NCBI GenBank assembly: GCA_011371305.1
Contig: DRQW01000009.1
Span: 1 to 58,973 of the forward strand
Origin: Anaerolineae bacterium
GTDB taxonomy: Bacteria > Chloroflexota > Anaerolineae > J102
Direction: 5' to 3'
DNA length: 58,973 nt
Under the pieces are notes generated by a model. It ran no database searches. It saw nothing but the letters and a program-made list of their open reading frames with translations, and was not told the DNA's origin. How positions within the stretch are numbered: the stretch's first letter is position 1; every line of letters starts with the position of its first letter. Made by a program: the position numbers and the translations under genes. Below, one piece after another: positions 1 through 57,426 of the stretch.

Positions 1-253
1 AATGTTGAGGCATATAGCCGATCTTTTGGCGTAATGCTTCCGGATCGCGGACGACATCTTGGCCCAGGACGTGAGCTTGCCCCGACGTGGGCTTGAGCAC
101 CCCGGCCAGCATCCGCAGCGTAGTGGTCTTGCCCGCGCCATCGGGGCCGATGAGGCCAAACACTTCCCCCCGTTCGATGGTGAGAGAAAGGTCGCGTACG
201 GCCACAGTCTTACGGAATTTGCGATGCAGACGATGGGTGACAATGGCTTCCAT
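1..253 (-). CDS. ABC transporter ATP-binding protein, N-terminal part (gene runs off the left edge)
   Basis: Reverse-strand translation from ATG at 253: [59 protein letters not shown]... with Walker [10 protein letters not shown]. Missing from the ORF track because it has no stop in the window. Confidence 0.85.
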
Positions 254-331
254 CGTAACAGGTGATGCTGTCTGTGGGCTTAACACGGAAAAGAAAAATC
301 GAGAAAAAACGAGATGGATCAATAAAAGGGC

Positions 332-344
332 TTGTAACTTACAA
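332..344. promoter_or_regulatory. Perfect 6-1-6 palindrome TTGTAAcTTACAA in the 163-bp gap upstream of the ABC ATPase gene; possible operator
   Basis: Read directly from the sequence. Sits between the end of the permease gene (417) and the ATPase start (253). No binding protein can be assigned. Confidence 0.25.
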
Positions 345-416
345 CTTGCCAATCATTTTCATGTGTTCTTTGTGGTTTTTGGCTCGCGTTGGGCCAAGCT
401 ACCTGAGCAGTAACCA

Positions 417-1541
417 TTATGCAATCTGTCGAGAGAAGGACCGCCAGGCAATAACGCCTGTACCCAAGGCGATGCCCGCCAGGGCCAACACATGGGGCAG
501 GATCATGCTCAGGGTGGCCCCGCGCAGAATGATGGCGCGGGTGGCTGTCATAAAGTGCTGCAGGGTGGAGATTTGCGCCAACCCGCGCATGACCAGGGGC
601 ATGTTTTCCACTGGCAACATGTAACCGCTTAGAGTCACTTCCAGAATCGCCAATAGAAAGACCAGGAGGACGGCCTGCTGCTGGTTCTGGGTGAACAGGG
701 AGATAAGGGTGCCCACCCCCACGATGGCGATGATAGCCAGGGCCGCGACCAGCAGCAGCACAACCAGGCTACCTCGCAGGGGAATGTCGTAACCCCACGT
801 CTGCACGGCCAGAAGGAGCATAAAGTTGAGGATGCTAAGGCCAATGGGCGCGAGGGCCTTGCCGATGATCAATTCCAGTCGCCGAATGGGGGTAATCAAC
901 AATTGTTCCAGGGTGCCGATTTCTTTTTCCCGTACAAAGCCTGTCGCGGCCAGGACCAAGGCCACCTGATAGACGATGAAAGCGACGGTGGAAGGGATGA
1001 CAAACCATTGAATGTTGAAGGTAGCGTTGAAAAGGGCGTTGGTTCGCACATCCACGCCTCCGATATCCATACCCGGGGGTAGCTGCACATAGCGTTGGAC
1101 AAACAAGCTGGTGACCCCCTGGATGACCGGCTCGATCATACTTCCGATGAGAATGTTGGTCCCATCAACCATCACCTGGATCCGAGCCGGGGATTCGGTG
1201 GGGCTGTTGAACTCGCGAGCAAAACCTCTGGGGATCACGATCCCCACTTGCGCGTCACCATTGTCCAGCAGCGTACGCAGCTTTTGGTGCGACGGGGGAA
1301 AATAGCGCACCACCAGCTCCTCGGTCACATCCAATTCCTGGACCCATTCCCTGCTTAAGTCTGATTGATCGAGATCGATGATGGCGGTGGGGATGTCGCG
1401 CAGGCCGCGGGCGGTGTTTCGTGAGATCAACACGAGTTGCATCGTGGGGGCCAGGATCAGAAACAGGATGAGGAAGGTATCCCGGCGGATCTGGATCAAT
1501 TCTTTCCAAGTAATATTCACGATCTGGCGAAGCATCGTCAT
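417..1541 (-). CDS. ABC-2 type transporter permease (YbhR/YbhS-like)
   Basis: MTMLRQIVNITWKELIQIRRDTFLILFLILAPT... has an N-terminal TM, a large loop, then a C-terminal six-TM bundle, typical of the ABC-2 family. ATG at 1541 forms an ATGA overlap with the upstream stop, so the upstream part of the 476-aa ORF is rejected. Confidence 0.85.
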   Translation of the reverse strand: MTMLRQIVNITWKELIQIRRDTFLILFLILAPTMQLVLISRNTARGLRDIPTAIIDLDQSDLSREWVQELDVTEELVVRYFPPSHQKLRTLLDNGDAQVGIVIPRGFAREFNSPTESPARIQVMVDGTNILIGSMIEPVIQGVTSLFVQRYVQLPPGMDIGGVDVRTNALFNATFNIQWFVIPSTVAFIVYQVALVLAATGFVREKEIGTLEQLLITPIRRLELIIGKALAPIGLSILNFMLLLAVQTWGYDIPLRGSLVVLLLVAALAIIAIVGVGTLISLFTQNQQQAVLLVFLLAILEVTLSGYMLPVENMPLVMRGLAQISTLQHFMTATRAIILRGATLSMILPHVLALAGIALGTGVIAWRSFSRQIA

Positions 1542-2635
1542 CCCACCCGTTTTTTGAATGACAAGATGGTGAACATGGTGGCAAACAACCCCATGCTGAG
1601 CAAAATGAACGCGTGCCAGCCTAAGGCGTGCCAGCCCTGGCCTTTGAGGAACACCGCCCGATTGATGGCGATGAAGTGGGTAGCTGGGAGGGTTGAGGCG
1701 ATGAATCGGGCTTGGTCGTCGATGGGAACGATTAATCCGGTCAGGAAGAAACTGGGTACCAGGAAAAGAAGCAATACCGCGCGCAACGCGGTGCTTTGGT
1801 TCGAGATGAAGTTGGAAACCAGGATGCTGATCCCCAGGGTGGCCCATAAATAAAGGAAAGTGAAGCCGGCTAGGTCCAAATAGCTCCCTTTCATGGGGAC
1901 TTTGAACCAGAAAACCGCCACTGCCACCGCCAAAGCCGCGCTGATCAGGCCGAAGATGATGTAGGGGATGAGCTTGCCAGGGATGTATTCTACGGCCCGT
2001 ACGGGGGTTGCCACCAAACTTTCGAAGCTACCCAATTCTTTTTCGCGCGTCAACGCCAGGGCCACCGCCATACTGGGCAGGATCATGGCGATAGCCAGCA
2101 GGGCGGGGGTCATGCTATAGCGCCCCTTGATGTGGGGATTGTAAAGGGTGATGGCGCGCAACACCACAGGTTGGTTTATCTCCAGGGTCTCGAATTGCGT
2201 TCCCCATTCCGAGATGCGGGAGGACAGAATCGCCAATTGGGAACTGGCATTGATCGCGTCCGAACCGTCGGCTAAGACCTGGACGGACGCGCGTCGCCCG
2301 GACGTTAGATCGCGGCCAAACCCTGGCGGAATGACCAGCCCCAGCTTGATCTCACCTGCAGCCATGCTCTCACGCAGATCGTCATAGCGTGCTACCTCTC
2401 CCACAACGATGATGTTCCGATCATGGCTCAAAGCAGCGACTAGGTCGCGTGATTGGGGGGAACGATCTTGGTCGTAGATGGCGAATCGGGCCGGGTTTAG
2501 ATCAAAGGAGAAAACATAGGCGAAGGCCGTAAGCATGATTGCGGGGGAGACGGTCACCAGGAACAACAGGCGTCGGTCCCGGAGGATGTGCCGAAACTCC
2601 TTGCGCATGATGGCCCAAAGGCGTGCGAGGGACAT
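1538..2635 (-). CDS. ABC-2 type transporter permease (YbhS/YbhR-like)
   Basis: MSLARLWAIMRKEFRHILRDRRLLFLVTVSPAIML... shows the ABC-2 permease architecture. Paralogous to, and translationally coupled with, the next gene. Confidence 0.85.
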   Translation of the reverse strand: MSLARLWAIMRKEFRHILRDRRLLFLVTVSPAIMLTAFAYVFSFDLNPARFAIYDQDRSPQSRDLVAALSHDRNIIVVGEVARYDDLRESMAAGEIKLGLVIPPGFGRDLTSGRRASVQVLADGSDAINASSQLAILSSRISEWGTQFETLEINQPVVLRAITLYNPHIKGRYSMTPALLAIAMILPSMAVALALTREKELGSFESLVATPVRAVEYIPGKLIPYIIFGLISAALAVAVAVFWFKVPMKGSYLDLAGFTFLYLWATLGISILVSNFISNQSTALRAVLLLFLVPSFFLTGLIVPIDDQARFIASTLPATHFIAINRAVFLKGQGWHALGWHAFILLSMGLFATMFTILSFKKRVG

Positions 2636-2650
2636 GGTTAGAATCTGCGT

Positions 2651-2680
2651 TCCAGTGACTCAGTGTTCAGTGTTCAGTGA
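2651..2680 (-). repeat. Tandem heptamer array (sense strand TCACTGA ACACTGA ACACTGA GTCACTG)
   Basis: 7-nt periodicity read directly. Contains the TetR stop codon (..ACT GAA CAC TGA) and lies just upstream of the permease start. Confidence 0.8.
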
Positions 2681-3310
2681 GCCAGAGATCAGGGGACTGG
2701 GAGGTTGATGGTTAGGTGGATCCGTGGGGATGTGTTCGCTGATGGGGCGGATGAGCGCGGCTGTACGAGCGGCCATCTCTTGGGCGTCCACGTCGGGATG
2801 GCGTAACAGATACCGGATAGCGCCGGCGATGAGTCCGCCCAGCAAAGGCGCGATCCAGGCGATGGCTTTTTCGGGTAGCTCGGTGTTGAGCCGCAGCCCG
2901 TCCGCGACACGTGTTTCCAACAGATCCAGCGCGCGCTCATAGTGTTCGGCCGCGTGGCGGGGACCAAACACGGCCTGGAACAGCGCGCGGTGCTGTTCTA
3001 CGAACCGGAAGAGCTGCATGAGCTGCGCATGCAGGCGTTGGTCCAAAGTTAATCCTTTCAGTTCGGGCCGATGGGGATTCCCCAACTGCTGTAAATCTTC
3101 CCAGATCGCGGCTTCGATCAACGCCTCTTTGTTGGGAAAATAGGTGTAGAAACTCCCCACAGCCATATCCGCTTCCTCGGTCACATCCTGCACGGTCAGC
3201 CCGGCCAATCCCTTGCGGGCGATGATCTCTCGGGCTGCGTCCACGAGCCGCTGCCGACGGCGACTGCGGCGACGTTCGCTGCGCGTGGAACTTGTGGGGG
3301 GATTGTTCAT
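2660..3310 (-). CDS. TetR/AcrR family transcriptional regulator
   Basis: MNNPPTSSTRSERRRSRRRQRLVDAAREIIARKGLAGLTVQDVTEEADMAVGSFYTYFPNKEALI carries the TetR N-terminal HTH signature. Start chosen at ATG 3310, downstream of the promoter at 3354-3382. Confidence 0.9.
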   Translation of the reverse strand: MNNPPTSSTRSERRRSRRRQRLVDAAREIIARKGLAGLTVQDVTEEADMAVGSFYTYFPNKEALIEAAIWEDLQQLGNPHRPELKGLTLDQRLHAQLMQLFRFVEQHRALFQAVFGPRHAAEHYERALDLLETRVADGLRLNTELPEKAIAWIAPLLGGLIAGAIRYLLRHPDVDAQEMAARTAALIRPISEHIPTDPPNHQPPSPLISGSLNTEH

Positions 3311-3328
3311 GAATGGTTGTTCAAGAAA

Positions 3329-3382
3329 TGAATGGACATTCAATTTACGGGCTATTATATGCTTTTTTGGAGAAGGTGTCAA
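3329..3382 (-). promoter_or_regulatory. Consensus sigma-70 promoter (TTGACA-17 nt-TATAAT) plus a 6-2-6 palindrome TGAATGgaCATTCA, a candidate TetR operator
   Basis: On the minus strand, -35 TTGACA is at 3382..3377 and -10 TATAAT at 3359..3354, with an exact 17-nt spacer. The palindrome at 3329..3342 lies between the predicted TSS and the TetR ATG. ATGAATGG is also repeated at 3308-3315. Confidence 0.65.
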
Positions 3383-3633
3383 GGAACTTTTTTCTCCGGG
3401 TTCCGAAACTCCAGGACGCGGGCAAAGATCAAACCCCCAGCCCAACCGCTTTCTTCCCCGTTGCCGATCCCAGCTAATCCTATCCTGCTCGATAACCTTC
3501 GCGAATCACCGAACGTGTCATCCGCAACGGAAGGATTTTCACGCCCGTAGCGGCTTCAGCCTCATGGCAGGTTGTGATCGAGCTACTAGAGGGTGTGTTG
3601 GATGATGAAGCCTATCCGCAGCTATGCCGGGAA

Positions 3634-5040
3634 TTAAGTTGGAATCTCTGATGTAGTCTTGTTGTTGCGTTGTCTTTTCTGCAGGATTGTACGGGGAATG
3701 CGGGTGAGTTCGTCGGGATCGAAGGGGGAGAGCAGATCCCACGCCCGCTCCAGGGTCTCCTCGATGGTGCGTTCGCGCCGCCCCTGATGGATGAATTCCT
3801 GCTCGAACCGGTTGGCGAAAGCCAGAAAACGTCGGTCCTCCTGGCTAAGGCTCCCTTCGCCGATGATGGCCACCAGGCGGCGCAGGTCGCGGCCGCGGGC
3901 GTAGAACGCGTAAAGCTGGTCGGCCACGGCCCGATGGTCCTCGCGCGTTTTCTCCGGCCCAATGCCCGCGTTCATCAGGCGACTGAGACTGGGCAGCACG
4001 TCGATGGGCGGGTATACGCCTTTGCGGTGGAGGTCGCGGGAGAGGACGATCTGACCCTCGGTGATGTAGCCCGTGAGGTCGGGGATGGGGTGGGTGATGT
4101 CGTCGTCGGGCATGGTGAGGATGATAAGTTGGGTAATGGACCCTACCCGGCCGCGGATGCGCCCGGCCCGTTCGTACAGCGTGGCCAGGTCGGTGTACAT
4201 GTAACCGGGATAGCCCCGGCGCCCGGGCACTTCTTCTCGCGCGGTGGCCACTTCCCGCAGCGCCTCGCAATAGTTGGTCATGTCGGTGAGGATGACCAGC
4301 ACATGCAGGTCATGCTCGAAGGCCAGGTATTCGGCCGCGGTCAGGGCCGCTCGTGGGGTGAGCAATCGTTCCACCGCGGGGTCGTCGGCCAGGTTGAGGA
4401 AGAGCACCGCGTGGGCCAGCGCGCCGCTGGCTTCCAGGCTTTGGCGGAAGAAGCTGGCCTCGCGATGGGTGATGCCCAGGGCCGCGAAGACCACCACGAA
4501 CTCGCCCGACTCATCCCGCACCTGCGCCTGCGCCGCGATCTGCGCGGCCAGTTCGTTGGCGGGCAGGCCGAAGCCGCTGAAGATGGGGAGCTTCTGCCCC
4601 CGCACCAGGGTGTTGAGCCCATCGATGGCACTGATGCCCGTCTGGATGAAATCCGCGGGGTGGGCGCGAGCGTAAGGGTTGATGGGCATGCCGTTGACGT
4701 CCAGCAGGGCCTCGGGCGCCAGGGGCGGCCCGCCGTCGATGGGGTTGCCTGAGCCGTCGAAGATGCGGCCTAACATGCCTAGCCCCACGCCGATGCGCGC
4801 GCCCCGCCCACTGAACCGGGCCAGGGTGCGATCCAGGTCCAGGCCAGCGGTGCCCTCGAACACCTGGATTACGGCCCGGTCGCCATCCAGTTCCAAAACC
4901 TGGCCCAAACGTTCTTTACCGTCGGGCGCGGTGATGATCGCGATCTCGCCCAGGCCCACGTCCTTCACCCGGTCGAAGATGAGGAGGGGGCCGGCCGCGA
5001 AATGTCCGGTGCGGTAAAGGGTGGTGAGCAGGGAAGACAT
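3634..5040 (-). CDS. atpB: A/V-type ATP synthase subunit B
   Basis: 468 aa: [25 protein letters not shown]...[15 protein letters not shown]...[17 protein letters not shown]. Typical regulatory B subunit. Confidence 0.95.
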
Positions 5041-5055
5041 GGGAATGTTTTGTAT

Positions 5056-5076
5056 TCAGTGATCAGTAATCAGTGG
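5056..5076 (-). repeat. Tandem heptamer array (sense CCACTGA TTACTGA TCACTGA)
   Basis: Three 7-nt units. The first TGA is the stop codon of subunit A (..GGA CGC CAC TGA). Confidence 0.8.
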
Positions 5077-6920
5077 CGTCCTTGAGACCAGTGCTCTATT
5101 TGCGCCAGGAGATCAGGGAAGGCGGCGCGGAGTTCGTCCAACGTCATCTCCTTCAAACGGAAGAGGCTGCGGCGGATGGGCGCGCTTTCCTGAATGCACT
5201 GGTCGAAGGTACAACGGCCTGAGCGCACGTGTTGTTTCACTGCGCCGTGATAAGCCAGAACCAGCCGCAGCATGAAGAACTGCTTTTCCAGCGGACAAAA
5301 CGCGTCGTCGCTGAACGCGGATTGCTGGAGGAAAGCTTCGCGCAGGAGGTAGCCTGTATCCAGGATCACCTTCTCGGGATCGCCCAAGGCGTCGCTGCCC
5401 ACAAGCTGGACGATTTCTTCTAGCTCCCGTTCCTCCTGGAGCAGGCGTTGGGCCTGTGCCCGCAGTTCGGGCCATAGGGCGTCTACATGGTCCCGGAACC
5501 AGTCGTCCAGGTGATAATGGGTGAAGCTGGCGATCCAATCGATGGCGGGGAAGTGACGGCGTCGGGCCAGGTTCACATCCAGAGCCCAGAAAGCGCCTAC
5601 CAGGCGCAGGCTGTTCTGCGTCATGGGCTCGGAGAAGTCGCCGCCGGGTGGGGAAACCGCGCCGATGATGGTGACCGATCCCTGACGGGGTTCCTGGCCC
5701 AGGGTTTCCACCAGGCCCGCGCGCTCATAAAATCCGGCCAGGCGGCTGGCGAGATAGGCGGGATAGCCCTCCTCACCCGGCATCTCCTCCAGCCGCCCCG
5801 AGACCTCCCGTAGAGCCTCACCCCAGCGGCTGGTGCTGTCCGCCATCAGGGCCACGTCCAACCCCTGGTCGCGGAAGTACTCGGCGATGGTAACGCCGGT
5901 GTAAATGCTGGCCTCCCGCGCGGCCACGGGCATGTTGCTGGTGTTCGCGATAAGCACGGTTCGGTGCATTAGGGGCCCGCCTGTGCGGGGATCTTTCAAT
6001 TCTGGGAATTCCACCAGAACTTCGGTCATTTCATTGCCCCGCTCGCCGCAGCCGATATATACCACGATGTCCGCATCCGCCCATTTGGCCAGGGATTGCT
6101 CGGTGACCGTCTTGCCCGTGCCGAAGCCGCCGGGGATGATGGCCGTGCCACCTTTAGCGATGGGAAACAACGTGTCGATGACCCGCTGGCCGGTGATGAG
6201 GGGGATGTTGGGGTCCAGGCGGCGGCGGATGGGGCGGGGTTTGCGCACGGGCCAGCGATGGGAGAGGCGCAGGGGGCGTCGCGGGCCGCCATTGTCGGGG
6301 ATGAGATGCCCGATGACCTCCCGCACCCGGAACTCGCCCGACCTCAGTCCTTCCACCCGGCCCGGAGGATAGTCGGGCGGGACGAGGATGCGGTGATGGA
6401 AGTGGGGCGTCTCCGGAACCGTGCCCAGCAGATCGCCCGGCTCCACATGGTCGCCGTCATTGACCGCGGGCGTGAAGGGCCAACGCTGTTGCCTATCCAG
6501 CGCAGGCAGGATGACCCCGCGGGCGATGTAAGGCTCTTGCGGTCGGCCCTGGTCATCCGGTTGAGTCAGGAGGGGCAGGGGGCGCTGCACGCCGTCGAAG
6601 ATGCCGCCTAACAGGCCTGGCCCCAGCTCCACCCACAGGGGCGCGCCCGTATCCCATACCTCATCGCCCACCTTCAGGCCCGAGGTGTCCTCATAGACCT
6701 GGATGGTGGCGACGTCGCCAGCGAGGCGAATGATCTCGCCGATGAGGCGTTCCGGTCCCACCCATGCCACATGATAGAGCAACGCGCCTTTCAATCCCCT
6801 CGCTTCCACCACTGGGCCGGAGACGCGCGTGATGACGCCTTTGGGCGCATCGCCCATGGGGCGCAGGGGGCGGGTGTAGTGGGAGGGTTTTGGGGGAGGG
6901 GATGGGGTGGTTGTGGGCAT
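5070..6920 (-). CDS. atpA: A/V-type ATP synthase catalytic subunit A
   Basis: 616 aa with Walker [10 protein letters not shown] and the non-homologous insert typical of A subunits. An alternative start is the internal Met at residue 22 (6857). Confidence 0.95.
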
Positions 6921-6942
6921 GGTGGTTGTGGGTGTGTAATTG

Positions 6943-7035
6943 TCAGTGTTCAGCGTTCAGTAATCAATGAGCAGTAATCAGGTGGGTTGTAGATGAGGGC
7001 TATTGCCGGCGTACCGTGAACTGCGAACTGTGAAC
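6943..7035 (-). repeat. Heptamer arrays (plus strand TCAGTGT TCAGCGT TCAGTAA TCAATGA GCAGTAA TCAGGTG, and GTGAACT GCGAACT GTGAACA) in the F-A intergenic gap
   Basis: 7-nt periodicity read directly. The two blocks are partly complementary to each other. Confidence 0.75.
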
Positions 7036-7037
7036 AA

Positions 7038-7376
7038 TCATGCCTCCTCGCCGCGGAAGGTGAGACTGTAGCCGATGACTCGGCGCATCATCTCGGCCAG
7101 GCGCTGGCGGCGAGCAATCTGGCCGCGACCGGGAAGACCATCGGGTAGGGGCATAACCAGGGGTTCGTATTCTGTCTGGATACGGTGCAGCAGGTCTTCG
7201 GGCAGGGCGTGATAAAAAGGCTCTAGCAAGGCGATAATACCTGGGCGTCCTTCCTCTAATTCCTGGCGCAGCAGGCGTTCTGCCCGGGCGGCATCATCGG
7301 CTACCAGCACGCGCGCGCCTGTCAGCCGGAAGCCCGGCGCCAGATCGGACGTGGTAATGACGGTGATGCGGGCCAT
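7038..7376 (-). CDS. atpF: A/V-type ATP synthase subunit F
   Basis: 112 aa: MARITVITTSDLAPGFRLTGARVLVADD.... Size and operon position match subunit F. Confidence 0.85.
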   Translation of the reverse strand: MARITVITTSDLAPGFRLTGARVLVADDAARAERLLRQELEEGRPGIIALLEPFYHALPEDLLHRIQTEYEPLVMPLPDGLPGRGQIARRQRLAEMMRRVIGYSLTFRGEEA

Positions 7377-7380
7377 GGTT

Positions 7381-7408
7381 TCAGTGTTTAGAATTCAGTG
7401 TCCAGTGT
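7381..7408 (-). repeat. Tandem heptamer array (sense ACTGGAC ACTGAAT TCTAAAC ACTGAAA) ending 4 nt before the subunit F ATG
   Basis: 7-nt periodicity with TGG/TGA/TAA/TGA in phase on the coding strand. Confidence 0.75.
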
Positions 7409-7439
7409 GATTGGGATGAGCCGAACATGACGTTTCTCA

Positions 7440-8513
7440 TCATCCTGATGTTGAACCGCAATGGAGAAAGTGGGCTTCCGCGTCCTCTTTCGGTAGATGC
7501 GCGGCCACAGCCTCGGCGATGAGCCGCAGATTGCGCAGTTCTGCGTCTTTGGCCGCGAGGTAGCCGATGAGGATGCCGGGACCCAAAGGATCTGCGGTGT
7601 AGAAAAGCTTCATACGCCAGCACAACAACGCTTGCTCCCAGGCCAGTTGCAGGTCCCGAGCGTCGAGGCCATCCCACGCGGTTAGCGCGGGCAGCCAGAA
7701 CGCGGCCGCGGGCTCGCGGGCCAGCGCATCGGTCATGGCCTCGGGGTCGGATGCAGTGCGGAAGGCCTCCAGCAGGTCGGGGGTGAGCTCGCCGCCGGGT
7801 AGGTAGTCGGGCGGGCTCTCCAGGGCGATGGTCTGGAAGTCCAGTGCCAGGAGCAGGTTGCGCAGGTCGATGGCTCGCCCCAGGTTAAGGCGCAGCAGGC
7901 GGCCTTCGTCGCCCGGAATGGCATCCACGGCCGCGCGGGTGGTTTCGGCCCAGGCTCGGTCGAAACGCCGCTCCAAAAATGTGGGGTCCACGGACTGACG
8001 CAGGGCCTCGGTGAGGGACCGAGCCAAGTCGGGCGTAGGCAGGCCCCATTGGTCCAGCAAGTGCACCAGGGCGCGGACTGTACTGCGACGGGCGAGTTCG
8101 TTGAGCACGCCTTCGGTGAAAGGAGGCAAGATGAACAATAGGGGAAGAAGCTCGGTGGCGGGCGTGTGGGAGCTGACGCCCCGTAGCAGTGTGATGATGT
8201 TGTGTCGAATGTAGGGCGCGGTGAGAAGCCGAAAGACGCGGGCAGTTTCGCCGCCGCAGAAGCCCGCGATACGCTGCAAGATCGCGTGATGGTCCAGTTG
8301 CAAGGCCCGGTGGATAATCCCGACGCCGGTATGGGTGACCGTGGCCTGTTTCAACGCCTCCTGATAGGGGGTTTGGTCCAGCGCACCGATGAGCGCGGGG
8401 ATGTCGGGCGCGGCCAGCAGGCGGTCCAGATCGGCGCGAGTCAGCAACCGGGAGCGCATGACGCGCAGCCGGGCGTTGATATACTCGTAGCCGAGGTCGA
8501 TGGTCGCGGGCAT
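7440..8513 (-). CDS. atpC: A/V-type ATP synthase subunit C (V0 d-like)
   Basis: 357 aa: MPATIDLGYEYINARLRVMRSRLLTRADLDRLL.... Helical protein between the E and F genes. Confidence 0.85.
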   Translation of the reverse strand: MPATIDLGYEYINARLRVMRSRLLTRADLDRLLAAPDIPALIGALDQTPYQEALKQATVTHTGVGIIHRALQLDHHAILQRIAGFCGGETARVFRLLTAPYIRHNIITLLRGVSSHTPATELLPLLFILPPFTEGVLNELARRSTVRALVHLLDQWGLPTPDLARSLTEALRQSVDPTFLERRFDRAWAETTRAAVDAIPGDEGRLLRLNLGRAIDLRNLLLALDFQTIALESPPDYLPGGELTPDLLEAFRTASDPEAMTDALAREPAAAFWLPALTAWDGLDARDLQLAWEQALLCWRMKLFYTADPLGPGILIGYLAAKDAELRNLRLIAEAVAAHLPKEDAEAHFLHCGSTSG

Positions 8514-8580
8514 GGTGGTTGGAACTGTATTGACCTGGTTTGTAAAAAGTTCTCAAAAGGAGCATTGGGCGAGACGGCAA

Positions 8581-8650
8581 CTTACGTAATTCGTGATGAT
8601 ACGTGAGATCTTACGCATCACGCATCACGTTTCACGCGTCCGCGTCTTTT
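8581..8650 (-). repeat. Heptamer array of the RCGTGAW / TTACGCA type
   Basis: Plus strand: CTTACGTAATTCGTGATGATACGTGAGATCTTACGCATCACGCATCACGTTTCACGCGTC. On the coding strand GCGTGAA ACGTGAT GCGTGAT gives TGA in three phases, and the first one is the subunit E stop. Confidence 0.75.
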
Positions 8651-9234
8651 GCATCGCCGATTTTCAGCAAACTCGCCAAAAGGGGACGGAGGTCGGGCTC
8701 GGCCCGCTCCAGGCGGCTTTCCAGAGTGTTTAAGGTAATGATGCGGTCGTCCGGGCAGTGGACTTCAACCCCGCCCCAGGTGGTCAATCCACCCGCTAAA
8801 GGTGCATCCCGCCCCAATTCCGCGAGGACACCGCGAGCTAGGGCTAGGTCCTCATCCGCGACATGGATGATCGCGCCGGGTTCATGCGCGGCCAGGGCTT
8901 CTCGGAGCAAGGCAGCAAAGATAGCGGGATAATCGTCGCGCGCGCGGGTTTGGGCCAGGAGGGCCCGGGCCTGTTGCAACGCGGCCTGGAACGCGGTTTC
9001 CTGCACCGCTACCAGTTTCCTCATTCGCGCCAGTCGGGCGCGGTGCAACAACCGTGCCCGTTCCTGTTCTGCTTCTGCTTCGGCCTTGGCCAGAATTTGG
9101 GCGCGTAAGGCGTCGGCCTGCCGGCGGGCCTCGGACAATCGGGTCTCGCGGCGCGTTTGGGCTTCTTCCAGAATAGCCCGGACTTGTTGCTCCGCGTCGT
9201 CAGCAATGGCCTTCAGAATGTGTTGGAGGGACAT
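8632..9234 (-). CDS. atpE: A/V-type ATP synthase subunit E
   Basis: 200 aa: MSLQHILKAIADDAEQQVRAILEEAQTRRETRLSEARRQADALRAQ.... Long N-terminal coiled coil plus a globular C-terminus. Confidence 0.85.
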   Translation of the reverse strand: MSLQHILKAIADDAEQQVRAILEEAQTRRETRLSEARRQADALRAQILAKAEAEAEQERARLLHRARLARMRKLVAVQETAFQAALQQARALLAQTRARDDYPAIFAALLREALAAHEPGAIIHVADEDLALARGVLAELGRDAPLAGGLTTWGGVEVHCPDDRIITLNTLESRLERAEPDLRPLLASLLKIGDAKDADA

Positions 9235-9250
9235 GGGGAAGTTGGCAGGA

Positions 9251-9285
9251 ATCAGTAATCAGTGTTCAGTAATCAGTGAACAGTT
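9251..9285 (-). repeat. Tandem heptamer array (sense AACTGTT CACTGAT TACTGAA CACTGAT TACTGAT) between the K and E genes
   Basis: Five 7-nt units read directly. Confidence 0.8.
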
Positions 9286-9288
9286 ACC

Positions 9289-9513
9289 TTATCCTCCCGG
9301 CAGAAGCAGCATGATCATGGCCGCGACGGCGAAGCCGAGGATGACCATGGTTTCGGGGATAGCAACCAGGAGGATGATGCGACCTGTGATTTCGGGCTTC
9401 TCCGCGATGGCACCTGCGCCAGCCGCGCCGATGCGGCCCTGGGCGTAGCCGGTGCCGAATGCGGTGAAGCCCACGGCCAGGCCCGCGCCGATGGCGATGA
9501 GTCCGAGTTCCAT
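9289..9513 (-). CDS. atpK: A/V-type ATP synthase subunit K (c/proteolipid, single hairpin)
   Basis: 74 aa: MELGLIAIGAGLAVGFTAFGTGYAQGRIGAAGAGAIAEKPEITGRIILLVAIPETMVILGFAVAAMIMLLLPGG. Two TM helices with the carboxylate in the PET motif. Confidence 0.9.
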   Translation of the reverse strand: MELGLIAIGAGLAVGFTAFGTGYAQGRIGAAGAGAIAEKPEITGRIILLVAIPETMVILGFAVAAMIMLLLPGG

Positions 9514-9698
9514 AGGACTGTCTCCTTTTGGAGAGGATTGTGTGACGTAACTGCGAATGTCATTTGGTCAAAAAACTCTTTTGCCACGAATGCACGAAGG
9601 ACATGAAGACACCAACTCATTGATTTTTATTTTTGTCCGTGTCCCTTCGTCTCCGTGTTGAGAAAATTGGAGCTACATTGACGGTTGGATGGGACACA

Positions 9699-11600
9699 TC
9701 ACGCATTATTTTCGGCAGACGCGCCGAAAGGGTGGAAGGACTGCCCGCCTTCTTCGTAAAATTTTGTGAAGAATTCGACATAATGGAGGCGCAGGGCGTG
9801 GATGGAGGGACTGAACGCGCCCATGGCTAGGTTCAAGGTGTGGAAGAGGATGGCGATAAGGACGCCCAGCCAGATGACGCCCATCTTGCCTGCCATGAGG
9901 TTACCCACCAGGGCCAGGTAGACCGATGCCAGGCCAATGGCGGCCAGGCGCAGGTAGGAAAGCACATTGCCCAGCACGCCCAGGAGTTCCACAGGAGCCA
10001 AGAGCGCGCCCACAGAGCCCAGGCCGTAGAGGAGCATGGCCAGGCCCACGATGACAGCAGCCAGGGCCGGGGACATCCACCCGCGAGGAATTTGTTGGGC
10101 GATGATGCCGACCAACAGGAAGAGACCGATGAGTCCCACCAGCTTCCCCGCTCGCTCCCACAATTCATGTTGTTGACGTAGATGCCATGCCTGCCATATC
10201 CCCAGCACCAATCCCAGCACGATGTGCACGGCTCCCAGGGCGATAGTGAACAGAAGCAGGGAGGCCAGTGCGCCGGGCTCGCTACGTTCTCTCCACAGGG
10301 GATGCAGGCCGAAGAGGTGATATCCCAAATCGCCAAAGAACTCGCCGAAAACGAAACCCCAGGCAATGGTCCACAAGGAGCCGATGAGGAGAAAGGTCAT
10401 CAGATCGCGCAGGCCACTGCCGGAGGGGAGGTGGCGTCGGACCAGGAGGACGATGATGAGAAGGGTGAGGCCGTAGCCGATGTCGCCCAGCATGAGCCCG
10501 AAAAAGAGGGGCATGAACAGGGCCATGAGCGCGGTGGGATCGATGGTTCCGTAGCGGGGCAGTGAGAGAAGACGAATGAAGAAGTGGAAGGGGCGGGTGA
10601 GGCGATTGCCTTGAAGCAGCACCGGCGCGTCTCGGGTTTCCTCAGCCGTGGGTGGCAGTTCCTCGATAACCAGCGCTTTGGGGAGGCGGTCCTCCAGGTG
10701 TTGTCGTAAGGTTTCCAGGTGGTCACGAGGTATCCAACCTACCAGCACGAATGCATGCCGGGTTTCGCCCAGCTGTTTGCGCACCTGCAACTGCTCAAGC
10801 CGCTGGCTCAACGTCCGGGCCGCGCCTAGCCAGCGCGCCCGATATCTCCGCGCGGCCTCATGAAGCTGGGCATCGATGGTTTCCAACTCGCGGGGGATCT
10901 CCTCCAGTCGCTGATGGATATGAGCTAATGCATCCTGAAAGGGGACATGTTGCAGTGATTCGGGCAGGGCGATGGGGGTAACTTGCATCCGGCCCAGGAG
11001 TGCATTCATTTTGGGTGCGACCTCGCGCGGGAATACGAGAATCGCTCCGATATGGTCTGGGTCCACTTGATCCCAAACGAGTTCAGTATATGGTCCGGCA
11101 ATGGCCTGCATCTCTTCGGCCAGCATATCCATAAGCCCAACGGCTCGCCGGTCCAGCAACACAGCGACGGTCTCGTACTCGCGCAACTGGGTCAATTCGG
11201 GCGTCAGGCGCATGAGCTTGCTGAGGGTGGCCGCATAACTGGGCAGCACGTCCGCGTCGTTGATGAGTTGTTGGCGCTCTCGAGCCAGGGCTTCCAGATC
11301 GCTCGCGTATGCGTCCAGTTCCGCCTGGATGCGGGGAATGAGGTCTTCTTCGGGCCAGGGTTCAGGTATCTCGTCGGGTAGAGGAGGCAATAGAGCCAGT
11401 AAAGCCTCCAACCTGGACCGAAGATAGGCCAGTATCTCCATCTCCTGCTGTTCCATGATGGCCGCGTAACGGTGCAGGCCAGGATGAACCTGGGCAGCAT
11501 CAATCAGTTGCACACACGCCAGGCGTTGCAGTTCTCGCAAAGTTGCGTCCAGGTCACGCTTATGGCCGACGATCTGAACGCGGGTCATGGGAGTGATCAT
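9699..11600 (-). CDS. atpI: A/V-type ATP synthase subunit I (a-like stator)
   Basis: 633 aa with an N-terminal soluble coiled-coil half and a C-terminal multi-TM half (..LRLAAIGLASVYLA.. / ..HALRLHYVEFFTKFYEG). Confidence 0.9.
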   Translation of the reverse strand: MITPMTRVQIVGHKRDLDATLRELQRLACVQLIDAAQVHPGLHRYAAIMEQQEMEILAYLRSRLEALLALLPPLPDEIPEPWPEEDLIPRIQAELDAYASDLEALARERQQLINDADVLPSYAATLSKLMRLTPELTQLREYETVAVLLDRRAVGLMDMLAEEMQAIAGPYTELVWDQVDPDHIGAILVFPREVAPKMNALLGRMQVTPIALPESLQHVPFQDALAHIHQRLEEIPRELETIDAQLHEAARRYRARWLGAARTLSQRLEQLQVRKQLGETRHAFVLVGWIPRDHLETLRQHLEDRLPKALVIEELPPTAEETRDAPVLLQGNRLTRPFHFFIRLLSLPRYGTIDPTALMALFMPLFFGLMLGDIGYGLTLLIIVLLVRRHLPSGSGLRDLMTFLLIGSLWTIAWGFVFGEFFGDLGYHLFGLHPLWRERSEPGALASLLLFTIALGAVHIVLGLVLGIWQAWHLRQQHELWERAGKLVGLIGLFLLVGIIAQQIPRGWMSPALAAVIVGLAMLLYGLGSVGALLAPVELLGVLGNVLSYLRLAAIGLASVYLALVGNLMAGKMGVIWLGVLIAILFHTLNLAMGAFSPSIHALRLHYVEFFTKFYEEGGQSFHPFGASAENNA

Positions 11601-11640
11601 GACAGGTGTTGTCTCAACACGGATGGAAGAACATGAATAC

Positions 11641-11745
11641 TGTTCCGCAAGTAGCGTTGTTTCATCTGCAAAATCAGCTTCAAGCCCACGTTAGGCGAAG
11701 CGCTAACGAGCGTGAAACGTGAGGACTTACGCATAACACATGAGA
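11641..11745 (+). repeat. Dispersed repeat family, copy A (inside the V-ATPase operon, between the G/H-like and I genes)
   Basis: ..AAAATCAGCTTCAAGCCCACGTTAGGCGAAGCGCTAACGAGCGTGAAACGTGAGGACTTACGCAT.. aligns to the copies at 26684-26855 (inverted), 50485-50600 and 57198-57358. Confidence 0.8.
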
Positions 11746-11746
11746 A

Positions 11747-12097
11747 CTATTCGTTTTGCGCTTCTGGCGAGTTGACATGCGCTTGATTGGGAAGGATGTA
11801 AGCTACGATGCGGGCCGCGGCCTCATCCACCCGCTGAATTAAGTGGTCGCGCAGGTGGTTAGCTTGGGCATCGGCCTGCTTGCGCAGAGCATGGGCTTCT
11901 TCCAGTGCTTGAGCGATGCGATGGCGTTTGAGGGCTTCGGCTTCGGCCAGGGCGTCGCGTTCTGCTTGAACGAGGAGCTTTGCCACTTCTTGTTCGGTTT
12001 TTTCGTCCAGGCTGCGAGCCTGTTGTTGTGCATCCGCAATCCGAGCTTCGGCTTGGCGCTCGGCATCACGGAGTTGAATGAGGATGTCGGTTGGCAT
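11747..12097 (-). CDS. A/V-type ATP synthase small coiled-coil subunit (G/H-like peripheral stalk)
   Basis: 116 aa: MPTDILIQLRDAERQAEARIADAQQQARSLDEKTEQEVAKLLVQAERDAL.... Position immediately before subunit I, as in Thermus-type operons. Confidence 0.7.
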   Translation of the reverse strand: MPTDILIQLRDAERQAEARIADAQQQARSLDEKTEQEVAKLLVQAERDALAEAEALKRHRIAQALEEAHALRKQADAQANHLRDHLIQRVDEAAARIVAYILPNQAHVNSPEAQNE

Positions 12098-12123
12098 GAT
12101 TGATTTCTGCGCGTAGTCATAGA

Positions 12124-12789
12124 CTATGGAGTAAATGACTGCTTAAATTTCGCCCGGTGTGCTCGGCCATGTCGGGCCTTGACCATCTTCAACCGATAAA
12201 TATCTTCCCGTTCGCGTTCGGCCAAACGTAATTCAATGAGCTTTAGCTGTTGTTGCAGTTTTGGCAGTAGGATGTATTCCAATGCATTGACACGGCGGAT
12301 GGTCTCGCGAATGGCTTCGGCCAGACGACGGAGCCGTAATTCATGATTGGCCAAATCCAGCAAAGCTTCGAGTTCAGCTTCAAAAGCTAGGGCGACTGCG
12401 TCCAAACGGGGCGCGCTGTGGGTAGGGCTATGGGGACGATCGCTGGCCGTGCGCACCAGGGCTTTTGGTGCAATGCGCAGGACATGGACGCCCATCACGC
12501 GAGTGGAACCAATTTCCACAGAGATAGGCTTCTGAGCAGCCAGGGCCGCGCTACCGATGGTTTCAGGGCCATCGTGGGCCAGGGCTAGAGCCAATGCACG
12601 ACGCGCGGCCGCGGCCGCCTCGTCCAATGCTTGTTCTTCGGAGAGAACTTCATCCGCGCTGCGGCGTAATTCCTCAATGAGGGCATTGCGTTTCTGTTGC
12701 AACAAGTCACGACCCTTTTTCACCAATTCGATCTGGGCGCGCTTCCGATTCAATTCCGAACGGGTCGGTGTGACTTGCTCAGCGACCAT
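12124..12789 (-). CDS. atpD: A/V-type ATP synthase subunit D (central stalk)
   Basis: 221 aa: MVAEQVTPTRSELNRKRAQIELVKKGRDLLQQKRNALIEELRR.... Classic subunit D N-terminus. Confidence 0.9.
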   Translation of the reverse strand: MVAEQVTPTRSELNRKRAQIELVKKGRDLLQQKRNALIEELRRSADEVLSEEQALDEAAAAARRALALALAHDGPETIGSAALAAQKPISVEIGSTRVMGVHVLRIAPKALVRTASDRPHSPTHSAPRLDAVALAFEAELEALLDLANHELRLRRLAEAIRETIRRVNALEYILLPKLQQQLKLIELRLAEREREDIYRLKMVKARHGRAHRAKFKQSFTP

Positions 12790-12851
12790 AGCTCACCATC
12801 TTCTTGATAAAGTGGCACCCGAATATGTTCATGGACGGCTTTTGAGTTGCA

Positions 12852-12914
12852 GGTGGTGGGTGGCAGGGGACAAGCTTACATTGCGGGCCGGCTTGTCGCC
12901 TGCCACGCACCACC
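12852..12914 (-). promoter_or_regulatory. Long near-perfect hairpin (24-nt arms, 22 of 24 paired) 63-125 nt upstream of atpD
   Basis: GGTGGTGGGTGGCAGGGGACAAGC - 15 nt loop - GCTTGTCGCCTGCCACGCACCACC. No U-tract follows on either strand. Confidence 0.6.
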
Positions 12915-13041
12915 GGCGTCCCAATCCAGTGAGAAATTGAAACCCATAAAGGCTACTTTAATTGTATTAAGAAGGCCGGTTTTTGGCTATGATTTTCATC
13001 ATTTATAAAAAGGAAACGGATGGGTGGAGGCGGGAAAGCAG

Positions 13042-16642: not shown

Positions 16643-16717
16643 GGTTGGTGCAGTGTACAATTTTCAATGTTGGGTTGGGTAAAGCAGGGTCCAGTATTTA
16701 GCGAGGCGATGAGTGGT

Positions 16718-16768
16718 GCGTAAAACGTGATGCGTAATGCGTCAGCCCTCATGTTTCACGTTTTACGC
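16718..16768. repeat. Perfect 13-nt inverted repeat GCGTAAAACGTGA / TCACGTTTTACGC built from RCGTRAW heptamers
   Basis: Arms at 16718-16730 and 16756-16768, in the divergent region between rfbC and the membrane-protein operon. Confidence 0.7.
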
Positions 16769-16901
16769 ATCCCATTCGTATCGTCTCGGCCACATTGGCC
16801 TGACAGGTCTTGCTTGGGAGCATGTGAACGATTCACGTAACTGTCCAAGTATACACCAGAAGTTCGGAATTGCTCCAAGATCATGCTACAATTTTGACCT
16901 T

Positions 16902-20910: not shown

Positions 20911-22083
20911 ATGACCAAATCCTCTCGTCTCCCCGGCTTCTATAAACTCAGCGTCGAAGAACGTCGGCAATTGCTGGCCGAACTGGCCCAGCTCTCCGCT
21001 GAAGACTTGCGCGCCCTGGCGGGCGGCCTCAGTGACGCGGACGCGGATGTGCTGGTGGAGAACGTGATCGGGACGTATGCCCTTCCCTTCGCCATCGCGC
21101 CCAACTTCATTATCGACGGCGAAGAGTTATTCATGCCTCTGGTGATCGAAGAACCCTCGGTGGTGGCGGCTATGGCCCATGCGGCCAAAATTGCCCGCGC
21201 CGGAGGCGGCTTTACCACAGGGAGCACGCCACCGATAATGATCGGCCAGATCCAGTTGCTTGATGTCCCCTATCTTGATGCCGCCATCGTGCGCGTTCAG
21301 GGGCTCAAGCGCGAATTGTTGGCCAAAATCGAACACCTTCATCCGACGATTCGCAAGTTGGGCGGTGGCCCCATGGATCTCCAGGTGCGCAAGTTGGAAG
21401 ACACCCCTGCCGGTCCTATGCTCATCATCCATCTGCTCATGGACACGCGTGACGCCATGGGCGCGAACGCGATCAATACCGCGGTGGAGACCCTGGCCCC
21501 AGAACTAGAAGCCATCACCGAAGGGAGGGCACTTCTCCGCATCCTGACGAACCTGAGCGATCAGCGCCGCGCCTGGGCCAGTTGTCGCATTCCTGTGGGT
21601 GCGCTGGAAACGCCGGAGTTGACGGGCGAGGAAGTAGCCCGGGGAATCTTCGAGGCCAATGCCTTTGCCCTGGCCGATCCTTACCGGGCAGCTACCCACA
21701 ATAAAGGCATTTTCAACGGCATCGACGCAGTGGCCATCGCCACGGGGCAGGATTGGCGGGCCATCGAGGCCGGAGGCCATGCCTGGGCCGCGCGTGAGGG
21801 CCAATACCGGGCGCTCACGGACTGGCGGGTGGAGAACAATCACCTGCTGGGATATCTGGAGATGCCCCTGGCCGTGGGTACGGTAGGCGGATTGACCAAA
21901 TATCACCCTACCGCGCGACTGGCTCTCAAATTGTTGGGCGATCCCGACGCGCGGCGCTTGTCGCAAATCATGGTGGCCGCGGGCCTGGCCCAAAACCTGG
22001 CCGCGCTGCGGGCGTTGGTCACCGAAGGCATCCAGCGCGGGCATATGGCGTTGCATGAAAGAAGATTAAAGATGAAAGATTAA
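20911..22083 (+). CDS. mvaA: Hydroxymethylglutaryl-CoA reductase, class II
   Basis: MTKSSRLPGFYKLSVEERRQLLAEL...VIEEPSVVAAMAHAAK...DAMGANAINT...GHMALH. Class II HMGR hallmarks. Confidence 0.9.
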   Translation: MTKSSRLPGFYKLSVEERRQLLAELAQLSAEDLRALAGGLSDADADVLVENVIGTYALPFAIAPNFIIDGEELFMPLVIEEPSVVAAMAHAAKIARAGGGFTTGSTPPIMIGQIQLLDVPYLDAAIVRVQGLKRELLAKIEHLHPTIRKLGGGPMDLQVRKLEDTPAGPMLIIHLLMDTRDAMGANAINTAVETLAPELEAITEGRALLRILTNLSDQRRAWASCRIPVGALETPELTGEEVARGIFEANAFALADPYRAATHNKGIFNGIDAVAIATGQDWRAIEAGGHAWAAREGQYRALTDWRVENNHLLGYLEMPLAVGTVGGLTKYHPTARLALKLLGDPDARRLSQIMVAAGLAQNLAALRALVTEGIQRGHMALHERRLKMKD

Positions 22084-22145
22084 CACGGAATGGATAAGGA
22101 TAGACTATGAGTTTTCAGTCTTTAGTTTTCGATCTTTCATCTTTC
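22060..22145. repeat. Heptamer block AAGATTA AAGATGA AAGATTA (encodes the HMGR C-terminal tail and stop) with its inverted copy ATCTTTCATCTTT about 50 nt downstream
   Basis: GAAAGAAGATTAAAGATGAAAGATTAA at 22057-22083. TTCAGTCTTTAGTTTTCGATCTTTCATCTTTCACC at about 22113-22147. Confidence 0.65.
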
Positions 22146-22166
22146 ACCCCCTGAGGGTTTCACACA

Positions 22167-57020: not shown

Positions 57021-57073
57021 CTGTTCTGAAAATAGAGGTTTCACGCCAAGGCACCAAGACGCAAAGGGAATAA

Positions 57074-57168
57074 GGTGGCAAGTGGCAGGTATGCAGGTGG
57101 CAAGTGGCAGGTGAAAAATGCCGCTACTTGCAGGACTTGCGACTTGCATACCTGCAAACTTGCAAACC
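57074..57168. repeat. Long imperfect hairpin built of GGCAAGT/GGCAGGT heptamer-like units
   Basis: Left arm GGTGGCAAGTGGCAGGTATGCAGGTGGCAAGTGGCAGGTG, right arm CTACTTGCAGGACTTGCGACTTGCATACCTGCAAACTTGCAAACC. Paired blocks are GCAAGT, GCAGGTATGCA and GCAAGT. Confidence 0.65.
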
Positions 57169-57197
57169 CGCTTAGCGAGCTTCGCGACTTTGCATGA

Positions 57198-57358
57198 GAT
57201 TTCATCGGTATCGGCGCGCGGCCGCGCAAGGCCTGTTCTGAAATAACGTCGTGTTCGTAAGCAAAATCAACTCGAAGCCCGCGTTGCGCGAAGCGTCGGC
57301 GGGCGTAAAACGTGATGCGTGAAACGTGAGGACTTACGCATCATGCATTATGCATCAC
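57198..57358 (+). repeat. Dispersed repeat family, copy B, ending in an RCGTGAW/GCATYAT heptamer tail
   Basis: GATTTCATCGGTATCGGCGCGCGGCCGCGCAAGGCCTGTTCTGAAATAACGTCGTGTTCGTAAGCAAAATCAACTCGAAGCCCGCGTTGCGCGAAGCGTCGGCGGGCGTAAAACGTGATGCGTGAAACGTGAGGACTTACGCATCATGCATTATGCATCAC. Confidence 0.85.
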
Positions 57359-57426
57359 GGAATCGGTTTCCCGCGTCCACGCGAGCAGGAAGCATTTTTG
57401 TGGAAATAATGCATTGGTTTGGGGTG

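Follow-up and report, generated by a model that had tools for sequence, protein, structure and literature searches.

Direct ACTGA heptamer arrays and hairpin-forming heptamer repeats between genes of an Anaerolineae V-ATPase operon

Background

Closest to the elements dealt with here are the TAACTGA direct repeats of Candidatus Maribeggiatoa, which occur in 169 sets of two to six units (MacGregor 2015, PMC4679880). This work concerns arrays of the related unit WYACTGA, located between genes of a V/A-type ATPase (V-ATPase) operon and of a neighbouring TetR/ABC-2 unit in an Anaerolineae bacterium (Chloroflexota; assembly GCA_011371305.1, contig DRQW01000009.1). The source genome, a metagenome-assembled one of an uncultured bacterium, was read through this one contig; its whole length of 58,973 bp is referred to as the window, and the five ACTGA arrays in it all lie within 6.7 kb. 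They are best explained as being of one kind with the TAACTGA repeats known from Beggiatoaceae, cyanobacteria and Bacteroidetes. With moderate confidence, we take them for slippage-driven heptanucleotide microsatellites of a widespread ACTGA family, retained at places where they supply stops without supplying starts.

TAACTGA sets are intergenic except for 25, and 147 of 170 point to a start codon; in the commonest class the set ends 1 nt upstream of it (PMC4679880). Fourteen sets overlap an upstream open reading frame (ORF) at its end, most sets are without ribosome-binding site, and no RNA structure is predicted for them. Several are found inside ribosomal-protein operons. The forward strand reads LITDN-stop and has stops in every frame, its overlap with coding ends being 18 nt at most. 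Coding potential was argued to set tolerated sites and orientations of the repeats, and binding by S1, Csp or CsrA-like proteins was proposed. The same repeats were also reported from cyanobacteria and Bacteroidetes.

Other heptamers are known as well. According to Mrazek et al. 2007, as cited in PMC4679880, heptanucleotides are the commonest long simple sequence repeats (LSSRs) of prokaryotes; they are the most abundant among units of 5-11 nt and phylogenetically sporadic, and slippage was proposed as their source. In Xanthomonas, GGGAATC heptamers form 70-75 inverted pairs per genome that are always convergent (Rehm et al. 2015, PMC4692102). A Nostoc preprint describes heptamer repeats 30-100 nt from starts, deletion of which has modest effects on a reporter.

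Results and discussion

Direct ACTGA arrays in five operon junctions

The minus strand of the window between 2,400 and 12,800 carries a V/A-type ATPase operon with the gene order D, 116-aa protein, I, K, E, C, F, A, B; the TetR/ABC-2 unit comes after it on the same strand. Pfam matches were obtained for subunits I, E, C, F, A and B, for TetR and for two ABC-2 permeases. Heptamer arrays of the window fall into two classes, direct sense-strand WYACTGA arrays and inverted arrays that form hairpins. The first class comprises five arrays of three to five units in the TetR-ABC-2, A-B, F-A, C-F and K-E junctions. These are listed below together with a second array of the F-A junction.

2651..2680, minus strand: TetR-ABC-2 array, TCACTGA ACACTGA ACACTGA GTCACTGG, spanning the 3' end of TetR
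5056..5076, minus strand: A-B array, CCACTGA TTACTGA TCACTGA; subunit A terminates at its first TGA (5072-5070)
6943..6975, minus strand: ACTGA array of F-A, ..ATTGATT ACTGAAC GCTGAAC ACTGA; 22 nt from its end to the A ATG at 6920
7010..7035, minus strand: second array of F-A, GTTCACA GTTCGCA GTTCACG, beginning 2 nt past the F stop (7040-7038)
7381..7408, minus strand: C-F array, degenerate ACACTGG ACACTGA ATTCTAA ACACTGA, 4 nt before the F ATG at 7376
9251..9285, minus strand: K-E array, four to five units, TCACTGA TTACTGA ACACTGA TTACTGA TT

Each ACTGA array contains TGA or TAA in all three sense frames and not a single ATG, GTG or TTG. Their antisense strands have two to four start codons and fewer than three closed frames. 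A preliminary description of this stretch, made from its letters alone, had stated that three consecutive units place a TGA in three frames, and this arithmetic holds. Since 7 is not a multiple of 3 and each unit brings one stop, closure of all frames follows from the unit itself.

The arrays are in close contact with flanking genes. TetR terminates at the third array TGA (2662-2660), its tail SLNTEH is encoded by the array, and the ABC-2 ATG at 2635 is 24 nt further on from this stop. The last TGA of the A-B array is 15 nt from the B ATG (5040). The K-E array starts 3 nt past the K stop (TAA, 9291-9289); from its end to the E ATG at 9234 there are 16 nt. Distances from array to ATG are thus 4, 15, 16, 22 and 24 nt, so that spacing is not fixed.

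RNA between stop and start is unstructured for the four purely direct arrays (z -0.84, 0.06, 0.02 and +0.86). The first value belongs to K-E and the third to A-B, where minimum free energy is -2.5 kcal/mol. The F-A junction is composite. A GTTCACA-type array, with neither stops nor starts in sense, comes first, and a repeat-free spacer of about 34 nt separates it from the ACTGA array. Complementarity between both arrays is partial (GTTCA/TGAAC), and the fold of the junction has z of -1.78. In the C-F junction, a 15-codon upstream ORF MFGSSQSHWTLNSKH (7428-7381, minus strand) terminates on the last array TGA, 4 nt before the F start.

Shine-Dalgarno sites precede only about 12 of the 54 window genes, and none was found before E, C, F, A, B or ABC-2. 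Duplex energies with the anti-Shine-Dalgarno sequence are between -0.9 and -3.3 kcal/mol in this set, with A at +2.8. They give no support to the idea that the arrays pair with the 16S 3' tail, which was rejected. The same fate met the idea that junctions are free of starts so that terminating ribosomes scan to the next ATG: it holds for K-E, A-B and TetR-ABC and fails for C-F, F-A and E-C. Several window leaders are C/A-rich, and subunits C and A both have AACCACC right before their ATG.

In the preliminary description, six places were said to carry 7-nt periodic arrays, and such arrays are indeed present at all of them. The assignment of all six to one WCACTGA family is right for the five WYACTGA arrays, but the sixth (8581-8650, E-C junction) consists of GCGTGAT/GCGTAAG units with an inverted copy and is the hairpin module of a dispersed repeat. 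What had been taken for a single array at 6943-7035 is two different ones, 7035-7010 and 6975-6943, about 34 nt apart. In three cases the first array TGA was thought to serve as stop of the upstream gene; subunits A (GRH) and E (DADA) indeed terminate in this way, but TetR (TEH) uses the third TGA. Arrays were further described as ending 4-30 nt before the next start, which applies to the five ACTGA arrays (4-24 nt) but not to E-C (67 nt). Finally, the TGA-bearing strand is the sense strand in all five ACTGA arrays, as had been claimed for every case, but in a hairpin module located just outside the range then considered (11710-11732, plus strand) it is antisense.

Periodicity and independent assemblies

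Periodicity was assessed by a sliding count of self-matches (15 or more of 21 positions) against locally shuffled sequence. Period 7 gave nine segments in the window, compared to 0.65 in shuffles (about 14-fold), and other periods from 4 to 14 gave 0-5 segments. A stricter self-match score picked up one array only. Runs of TCAG at exact 7-nt spacing were detected four times on the plus strand, where runs of CTGA do not occur. With a unit of 1-11 nt and a length exceeding chance, the period-7 arrays qualify as LSSRs.

Tandem repeats can be mis-assembled from short reads. A contig of one assembly, L003, ends or diverges inside the K-E array: in its positions 1-60, sequence upstream of the last two array units is unrelated to the end of the K gene, which reflects a chimera at the contig end or else a rearrangement in that strain. 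It is nevertheless extremely improbable that the arrays are artefacts of assembly or sequencing, because junction sequences are identical, base for base, in seven independent assemblies obtained from different samples with different assemblers:

ENA: ERZ940665, ERZ27262687, ERZ23491050
Logan: SRR8439053, SRR14510437, SRR7787706
JGI: 3300028400

The arrays are thus real. The TetR-ABC-2 array is the same in L002 and L215 as well. A sole unit change was observed among the seven strains: L003 has exactly one added CGTGATG unit (+7 nt) in the E-C array. This is a signature of slippage.

Relation to described heptamer repeats

The preliminary description knew of no earlier account of sense-locked arrays that close all frames in operon junctions. 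Such arrays had already been described for TAACTGA by MacGregor (PMC4679880), and all five direct window arrays are of this type, being ACTGA heptamers in intergenic forward position, with neither ribosome-binding site nor structure. The likeness further includes the 7-nt period, the size of sets (two to six units), location within operons close to starts devoid of Shine-Dalgarno sites, overlap of some arrays with the upstream ORF, stops in all forward frames, and interruption of sets by related heptamers. The two types differ in positions 1-2 of the unit, which are WY (TT, TC, AC, CC) in the window instead of TA; TTACTGA and TCACTGA are nevertheless single-base variants present in Table 3 of PMC4679880. 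Also, the host belongs to a phylum outside MacGregor's list, and its arrays are concentrated in one operon.

Similarity to other heptamers is less complete. The window arrays share with the STRR family, named in the preliminary description, the arrangement of tandem heptamers in non-coding DNA, including operons, and the presence of several unit families per genome. STRR arrays of heterocystous cyanobacteria, which PMC4692102 mentions, were reportedly described by Mazel et al. in 1990. They consist of units such as CCCCAGT and are often much longer. Unit sequences and host phylum both differ: the window units WYACTGA, GCGTGAT, AAGATGA and AGGTGGC in an Anaerolineae host do not place the arrays in this family.

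GGGAATC/GGGGAYT repeats of Xanthomonas and Nostoc (PMC4692102) are likewise intergenic heptamers whose pairs have a fixed polarity, which agrees with inverted ACTGA pairs (36:0 among the matches listed below) and with the hairpin arrays of the window. In contrast to the window arrays, which are G-poor and not conserved among relatives, they are G-rich, quadruplex-forming and reportedly conserved in position between two Xanthomonas species. LSSRs, as outlined in PMC4679880, are a statistical class that involves no claim about orientation or proximity to starts. Phase-variable contingency simple sequence repeats, such as the 7-bp repeats in Haemophilus hmw promoters, are also prone to slippage, situated near starts and variable in copy number between strains. 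They reside, however, in promoters, 5' untranslated regions or coding regions of surface-antigen genes and switch their expression, whereas the window arrays lie between housekeeping cistrons and show one unit change among seven strains.

V-ATPase junctions in relatives

Contigs of relatives were found by protein search with subunit A (85, 84, 76 and 73% identity) and compared with the window. Three of them, L206 (85%), L208 (84%) and L212 (73%), have the same gene order. Their junctions are tight and without the ACTGA arrays: in L206, L208 and L212, respectively, K-E measures 19, 7 and 16 nt, C-F 4, 86 and 13 nt, and F-A 3, 52 and 12 nt. The E-C junction is 12 nt long in L208, and in L212 the two genes overlap. 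No period-7 array was detected in the available 13.5 kb of L208 or 21.9 kb of L212. The V-ATPase genes of all three relatives are likewise without Shine-Dalgarno sites. Since these junctions work without arrays, arrays of the window are recent, lineage-specific expansions.

The comparison of orthologous junctions, which the preliminary description had suggested as a check, has another side. In L210 (76%), the A stop coincides with a TCAGTAA-type array and C-F contains CCTCTGA arrays, and L161 (positions 1-7600; Ga0184633_10001554), with A identity of 57% and GC content of 61%, has heptamer arrays in nearly every V-ATPase junction. Relatives thus do carry heptamers, in other junctions or of other units. 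In L161 the units vary (GCTGAWC, CGTGAGG, GAGTGAT, AATAGCC), and one inverted pair abuts the B start. In the A-B junction of L210 (3384-3520), an ACTGA/ACCGA array passes through the B start codon (ATGACTGATTACCGA), the first B residues being encoded by the repeat.

Relatives retrieved by a JGI metagenome scan with subunit A have at most 63% identity and are too distant for comparison of junctions. Eighty more distant V-ATPase loci contain period-7 segments at 2.2 per 100 kb, the same as for other periods, L161 being the one exception among them. On this ground, the idea that heptamer arrays are general to V-ATPase operons was rejected.

Proposed origin of the direct arrays

As stated above, we consider the direct arrays to be slippage-driven microsatellites. 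They would arise and change length through replication slippage in short non-coding gaps of the operon. A repeat in sense orientation adds stops in three frames and no ATG, GTG or TTG. It might therefore border on, or reach into, the 3' end of the gene before it and continue as far as the next start, with neither false starts nor longer ORFs as a result. On the opposite strand (TCAGTGn), each unit would present a GTG just upstream of the next gene, with few stops. Selection against false starts could in this way act as a filter for orientation. The resulting leaders, G-poor, unstructured and devoid of Shine-Dalgarno sites, should be compatible with the Shine-Dalgarno-independent initiation that most genes appear to use, and the effect on translation of the next cistron may be neutral to mild. 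Three-frame closure is a property that makes the sense orientation harmless rather than an established function. Among the roles listed in the preliminary description, the data agree best with that of a selfish repeat for which no other orientation is tolerated.

ACTGA arrays in other phyla

One genome per species, 185,579 species in total, was scanned with the pattern CACTGAWYACTGAWCACTGA. At least 120 stretches (L006-L125) from more than ten phyla matched, compared to about nine expected by chance for the whole library. Numbers in this and the following section that concern arrays outside the window are counts among the matches listed. About 22 matches come from Chloroflexota, mostly Anaerolineae and Ardenticatenia. 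Others are from Acidobacteriota, Verrucomicrobiota, Planctomycetota, Kiritimatiellia, Lentisphaeria, Bacteroidota, Microcystis, Parabeggiatoa, Desulfobacterota and further groups. MacGregor's scenario of transfer among three groups is disfavoured by this distribution, as the ACTGA family occurs in Acidobacteriota, Verrucomicrobiota, Planctomycetota, Kiritimatiellia, Desulfobacterota and others. Period-7 segments amount to 44 per 100 kb, versus 2-12 for other periods. Outside the selection by pattern, 206 arrays were found; 80 are CTGA-phased, and units vary widely among the remaining ones.

Genes in these stretches were called as longest ORFs. The caller extends ORFs into TCAGTG arrays via GTG codons, so that distances to "starts" are biased towards small values. 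In intergenic regions between co-directional genes, 28 have sense-only and 25 antisense-only arrays. The sense lock seen in the window is therefore not general, since both orientations are about equally common in this setting. Where pairs are present between co-directional genes, antisense precedes sense in 12 cases and the reverse order is absent. Position matters, too. Arrays nearest a start are sense by 36:15 and those nearest a stop antisense (TCAGT) by 54:30 (Fisher p = 9.5e-5), and TCAGTGx arrays usually begin on, or a few nt from, the upstream stop. Opposite-orientation neighbours are arranged as 5'-TCAGT...ACTGA-3' in 36 cases and never in reverse, a result independent of gene calls. 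Genes on either side of such pairs can be co-directional, convergent or divergent. Some enclose another inverted repeat (L067, L092), which suggests elements resembling miniature inverted-repeat transposable elements (MITEs) with heptamer-array ends.

Alternative roles of the direct arrays

The preliminary description proposed, among other possible roles, that arrays insulate translation between cistrons. They would then be selected three-frame stop cassettes that catch read-through or frameshifted ribosomes. Three sense frames are closed in the E-C array as in each of the five ACTGA arrays, three upstream genes terminate on an array TGA, and many other heptamer units carry a stop (L161, L210, the AAGATGA array of the window). 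Closure is, however, automatic for any stop-bearing 7-nt unit, and stop-free arrays exist (GTTCACA at 7035-7010, AGGTGGC at 57073). In K-E and C-F the true stop is upstream of the array, which only rare aberrant ribosomes would reach, and relatives manage without arrays in their junctions. Where one strand alone closes three frames, it is across phyla the sense strand in 28 cases and the antisense strand in 27, so that orientations are about equal elsewhere (28 vs 25-27). Inverted pairs of units other than ACTGA have stops mostly in the 5' arm (11:3), opposite to ACTGA pairs. We therefore regard selection for insulation as very improbable.

Several observations do not sit easily with the slippage reading that we prefer. 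The ACTGA core is conserved while positions 1-2 vary, position 3 being A in 70% of units not selected by pattern, and many phyla have this core in common. Such conservation is not expected from pure slippage with neutral drift and hints that a partner or mechanism with sequence specificity is involved. Heptamer elements are found in 6 of 8 V-ATPase junctions (3634-12789) but in 2 of 30 other co-directional junctions of the window (p = 2.5e-4), and two further lineages (L210, L161) have V-ATPase junctions with heptamer arrays. Avoidance of start codons, when tried as an explanation for polarity of all inverted heptamer pairs, was rejected, as 14 pairs of other units give 7:5. Orientation counts outside the window, moreover, rest on a crude longest-ORF gene caller with limited trimming of starts.

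These observations bear on the view that sense ACTGA arrays are translation elements. As a standby or loading platform, or as a site for a factor such as bS1 or a cold-shock-type protein, they would drive or tune Shine-Dalgarno-independent initiation or re-initiation of the next cistron, with copy number setting the output. Arrays located 4-25 nt before starts without Shine-Dalgarno sites, in unstructured RNA, agree with this, as does a core that is conserved across phyla next to a variable dinucleotide. So do the cross-phylum tendency of arrays to read towards the nearest start and their concentration in an operon whose subunits are needed in unequal stoichiometry. Core conservation, recurrence in many phyla and concentration in the V-ATPase operon are not explained by pure drift. 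A similar role was put forward in PMC4679880, and the Nostoc preprint sees a reporter change upon deletion of heptamers. On the other hand, spacing to the start is not fixed (4, 15, 16, 22, 24 nt), complementarity to the anti-Shine-Dalgarno tail is not useful, and the binding factor is hypothetical. Junctions of the nearest relatives are array-free, with intact genes that equally have no Shine-Dalgarno sites, and about half of co-directional arrays elsewhere are in the other orientation. A role in translation is possible, yet it appears clearly less probable to us than slippage with a filter for orientation.

A bolder version would make ACTGA arrays pan-bacterial RNA cis-elements present in at least ten phyla and of fixed polarity at codon boundaries, with UCAGU after stops, ACUGA before starts and pairs always reading 5'-UCAGU...ACUGA-3'. 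They would be read by a conserved translation component and would enable or tune Shine-Dalgarno-independent initiation or re-initiation within operons, with V-ATPase operons of Anaerolineae as a hot spot. We find this unlikely.

Hairpin-forming arrays and dispersed repeats

The E-C array and other hairpin-forming arrays form a class of their own, in which the arrays are modules of dispersed palindromic repeats.

8597..8637, minus strand: E-C module, referred to as family B; GCGTGAA ACGTGAT GCGTGAT GCGTAAG, loop and partial inverted copy; hairpin
11652..11752, plus strand: copy of the dispersed repeat in the junction of the 116-aa gene and subunit I; family-B module at 11710-11732 with TGA-bearing strand antisense to the operon
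16713..16771, plus strand: family-B hairpin in the divergent intergenic region beside rmlC
22053..22148, plus strand: AAGATKA array with inverted TCTTTCA array, the latter ending 19 nt before the next start (22167)
57073..57164, plus strand: AGGTGGC/ACTTGCA inverted-array hairpin in a convergent intergenic region; -56.5 kcal/mol, z -6.6

The E-C module closes three sense frames; its first TGA is the E stop (8634-8632), and its end is 67 nt from the C start. It belongs, as a partial copy (8596-8637), to an intergenic repeat that is dispersed over the window, measures about 85-170 nt and has an ACGTGAx/GCGTAAx heptamer hairpin at its end. This repeat is also found at 11652-11752, 16713-16771, 26684-26856, 50499-50595 and 57195-57363. 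Copies at 26775-26856 and 57233-57315 are complementary by 96-97%, and arms across the six sites by 73-97%. The copy at 57195-57363, with a family-B module (z -2.7), shares one convergent region (57073..57363) with the AGGTGGC hairpin. The family-B hairpin at 16700-16785 folds with -40 kcal/mol (z -5.5). In the pair at 22053-22148, the TAA stop (22081-22083) of the HMG-CoA reductase gene lies inside the AAGATKA array, and the next gene is HMG-CoA synthase-like. The stop-bearing arm comes first here, the reverse of ACTGA pairs.

L206 has a 569-nt insert in its E-C junction that contains the AGGTGGC hairpin (about 5500-5580) and the same flanking repeat as the window at 57073-57240. Because the same module is present there, this hairpin family is dispersed across species. 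The E-C array has features of repetitive extragenic palindromic (REP)- or MITE-like repeats, i.e. dispersed high-identity copies, an imperfect palindrome and intergenic location in both orientations. The likeness to REPs, BIMEs or MITEs extends to both the family-B module and the AGGTGGC hairpin, which are dispersed intergenic palindromes, near-identical (96-97%) and lying either way round, with a presence in a relative at a different site. They differ in that stems are here built from heptamer arrays, and no transposase or RAYT gene was seen in the window.

Arrays might also be RNA processing or stability sites, another role listed in the preliminary description: RNase cleavage sites or protective hairpins would then segment the polycistronic mRNA. 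Hairpin-type elements are indeed very stable (z -5.5, -6.6), F-A and E-C can form hairpins, and inverted ACTGA pairs of fixed polarity are common between genes elsewhere. Direct ACTGA arrays, however, have no predicted structure and no Rfam match, and array positions are not conserved among relatives. For arrays overall we judge such a function improbable; its likelihood is higher for the hairpin class.

Transcription units of the locus

A perfect sigma-70 consensus was revealed by promoter scan ahead of TetR:

3354..3382, minus strand: sigma-70 promoter, TTGACA-17-TATAAT

As TetR has its own promoter, TetR/ABC-2 is a transcription unit separate from the V-ATPase operon. An imperfect palindrome, AAATTGAATG-TC-CATTCATTT, follows this promoter at 3346-3326 (minus strand) and is a candidate TetR operator. 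In a scan of 2400-13100, no promoter or terminator-like site coincided with any array. The arrays of this stretch do not qualify as intrinsic terminators, which consist of a GC-rich hairpin and a U-tract, and the direct ones do not fold. Across the whole window, Rfam 15 at gathering threshold gave 0 matches and a tRNA scan found none.

For subunit A, the start at ATG 6920 was used, which is backed by conserved N-termini of homologs. The start annotated by NCBI (595 aa) is probably 21 codons short (6857-6920), because homologs keep ...RPLRPMGD upstream of that Met and several have Leu or Ile in its place. Genes E, C, F, A and B have GC content at third codon positions of 0.68-0.83, compared to a maximum of 0.73 among 44 other window genes. 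High expression or a foreign origin are possible reasons.

Conclusions

Direct arrays of the V-ATPase region add an Anaerolineae example to a class of repeats described in 2015 (the general class in 1990 and 2007), for which three-frame stops on the sense strand were already published (PMC4679880). The ACTGA heptamer family is far wider than reported, with at least 120 matches in more than ten phyla against about nine expected, which weakens the explanation by horizontal transfer. Further results, among the matches listed, are the strict polarity of inverted arrays (36:0) and the rule for single arrays at starts and stops (p ~1e-4). Orthologous V-ATPase junctions, in which arrays are present, absent or different, constitute a natural experiment on the effects of heptamers on translation of the downstream cistron.

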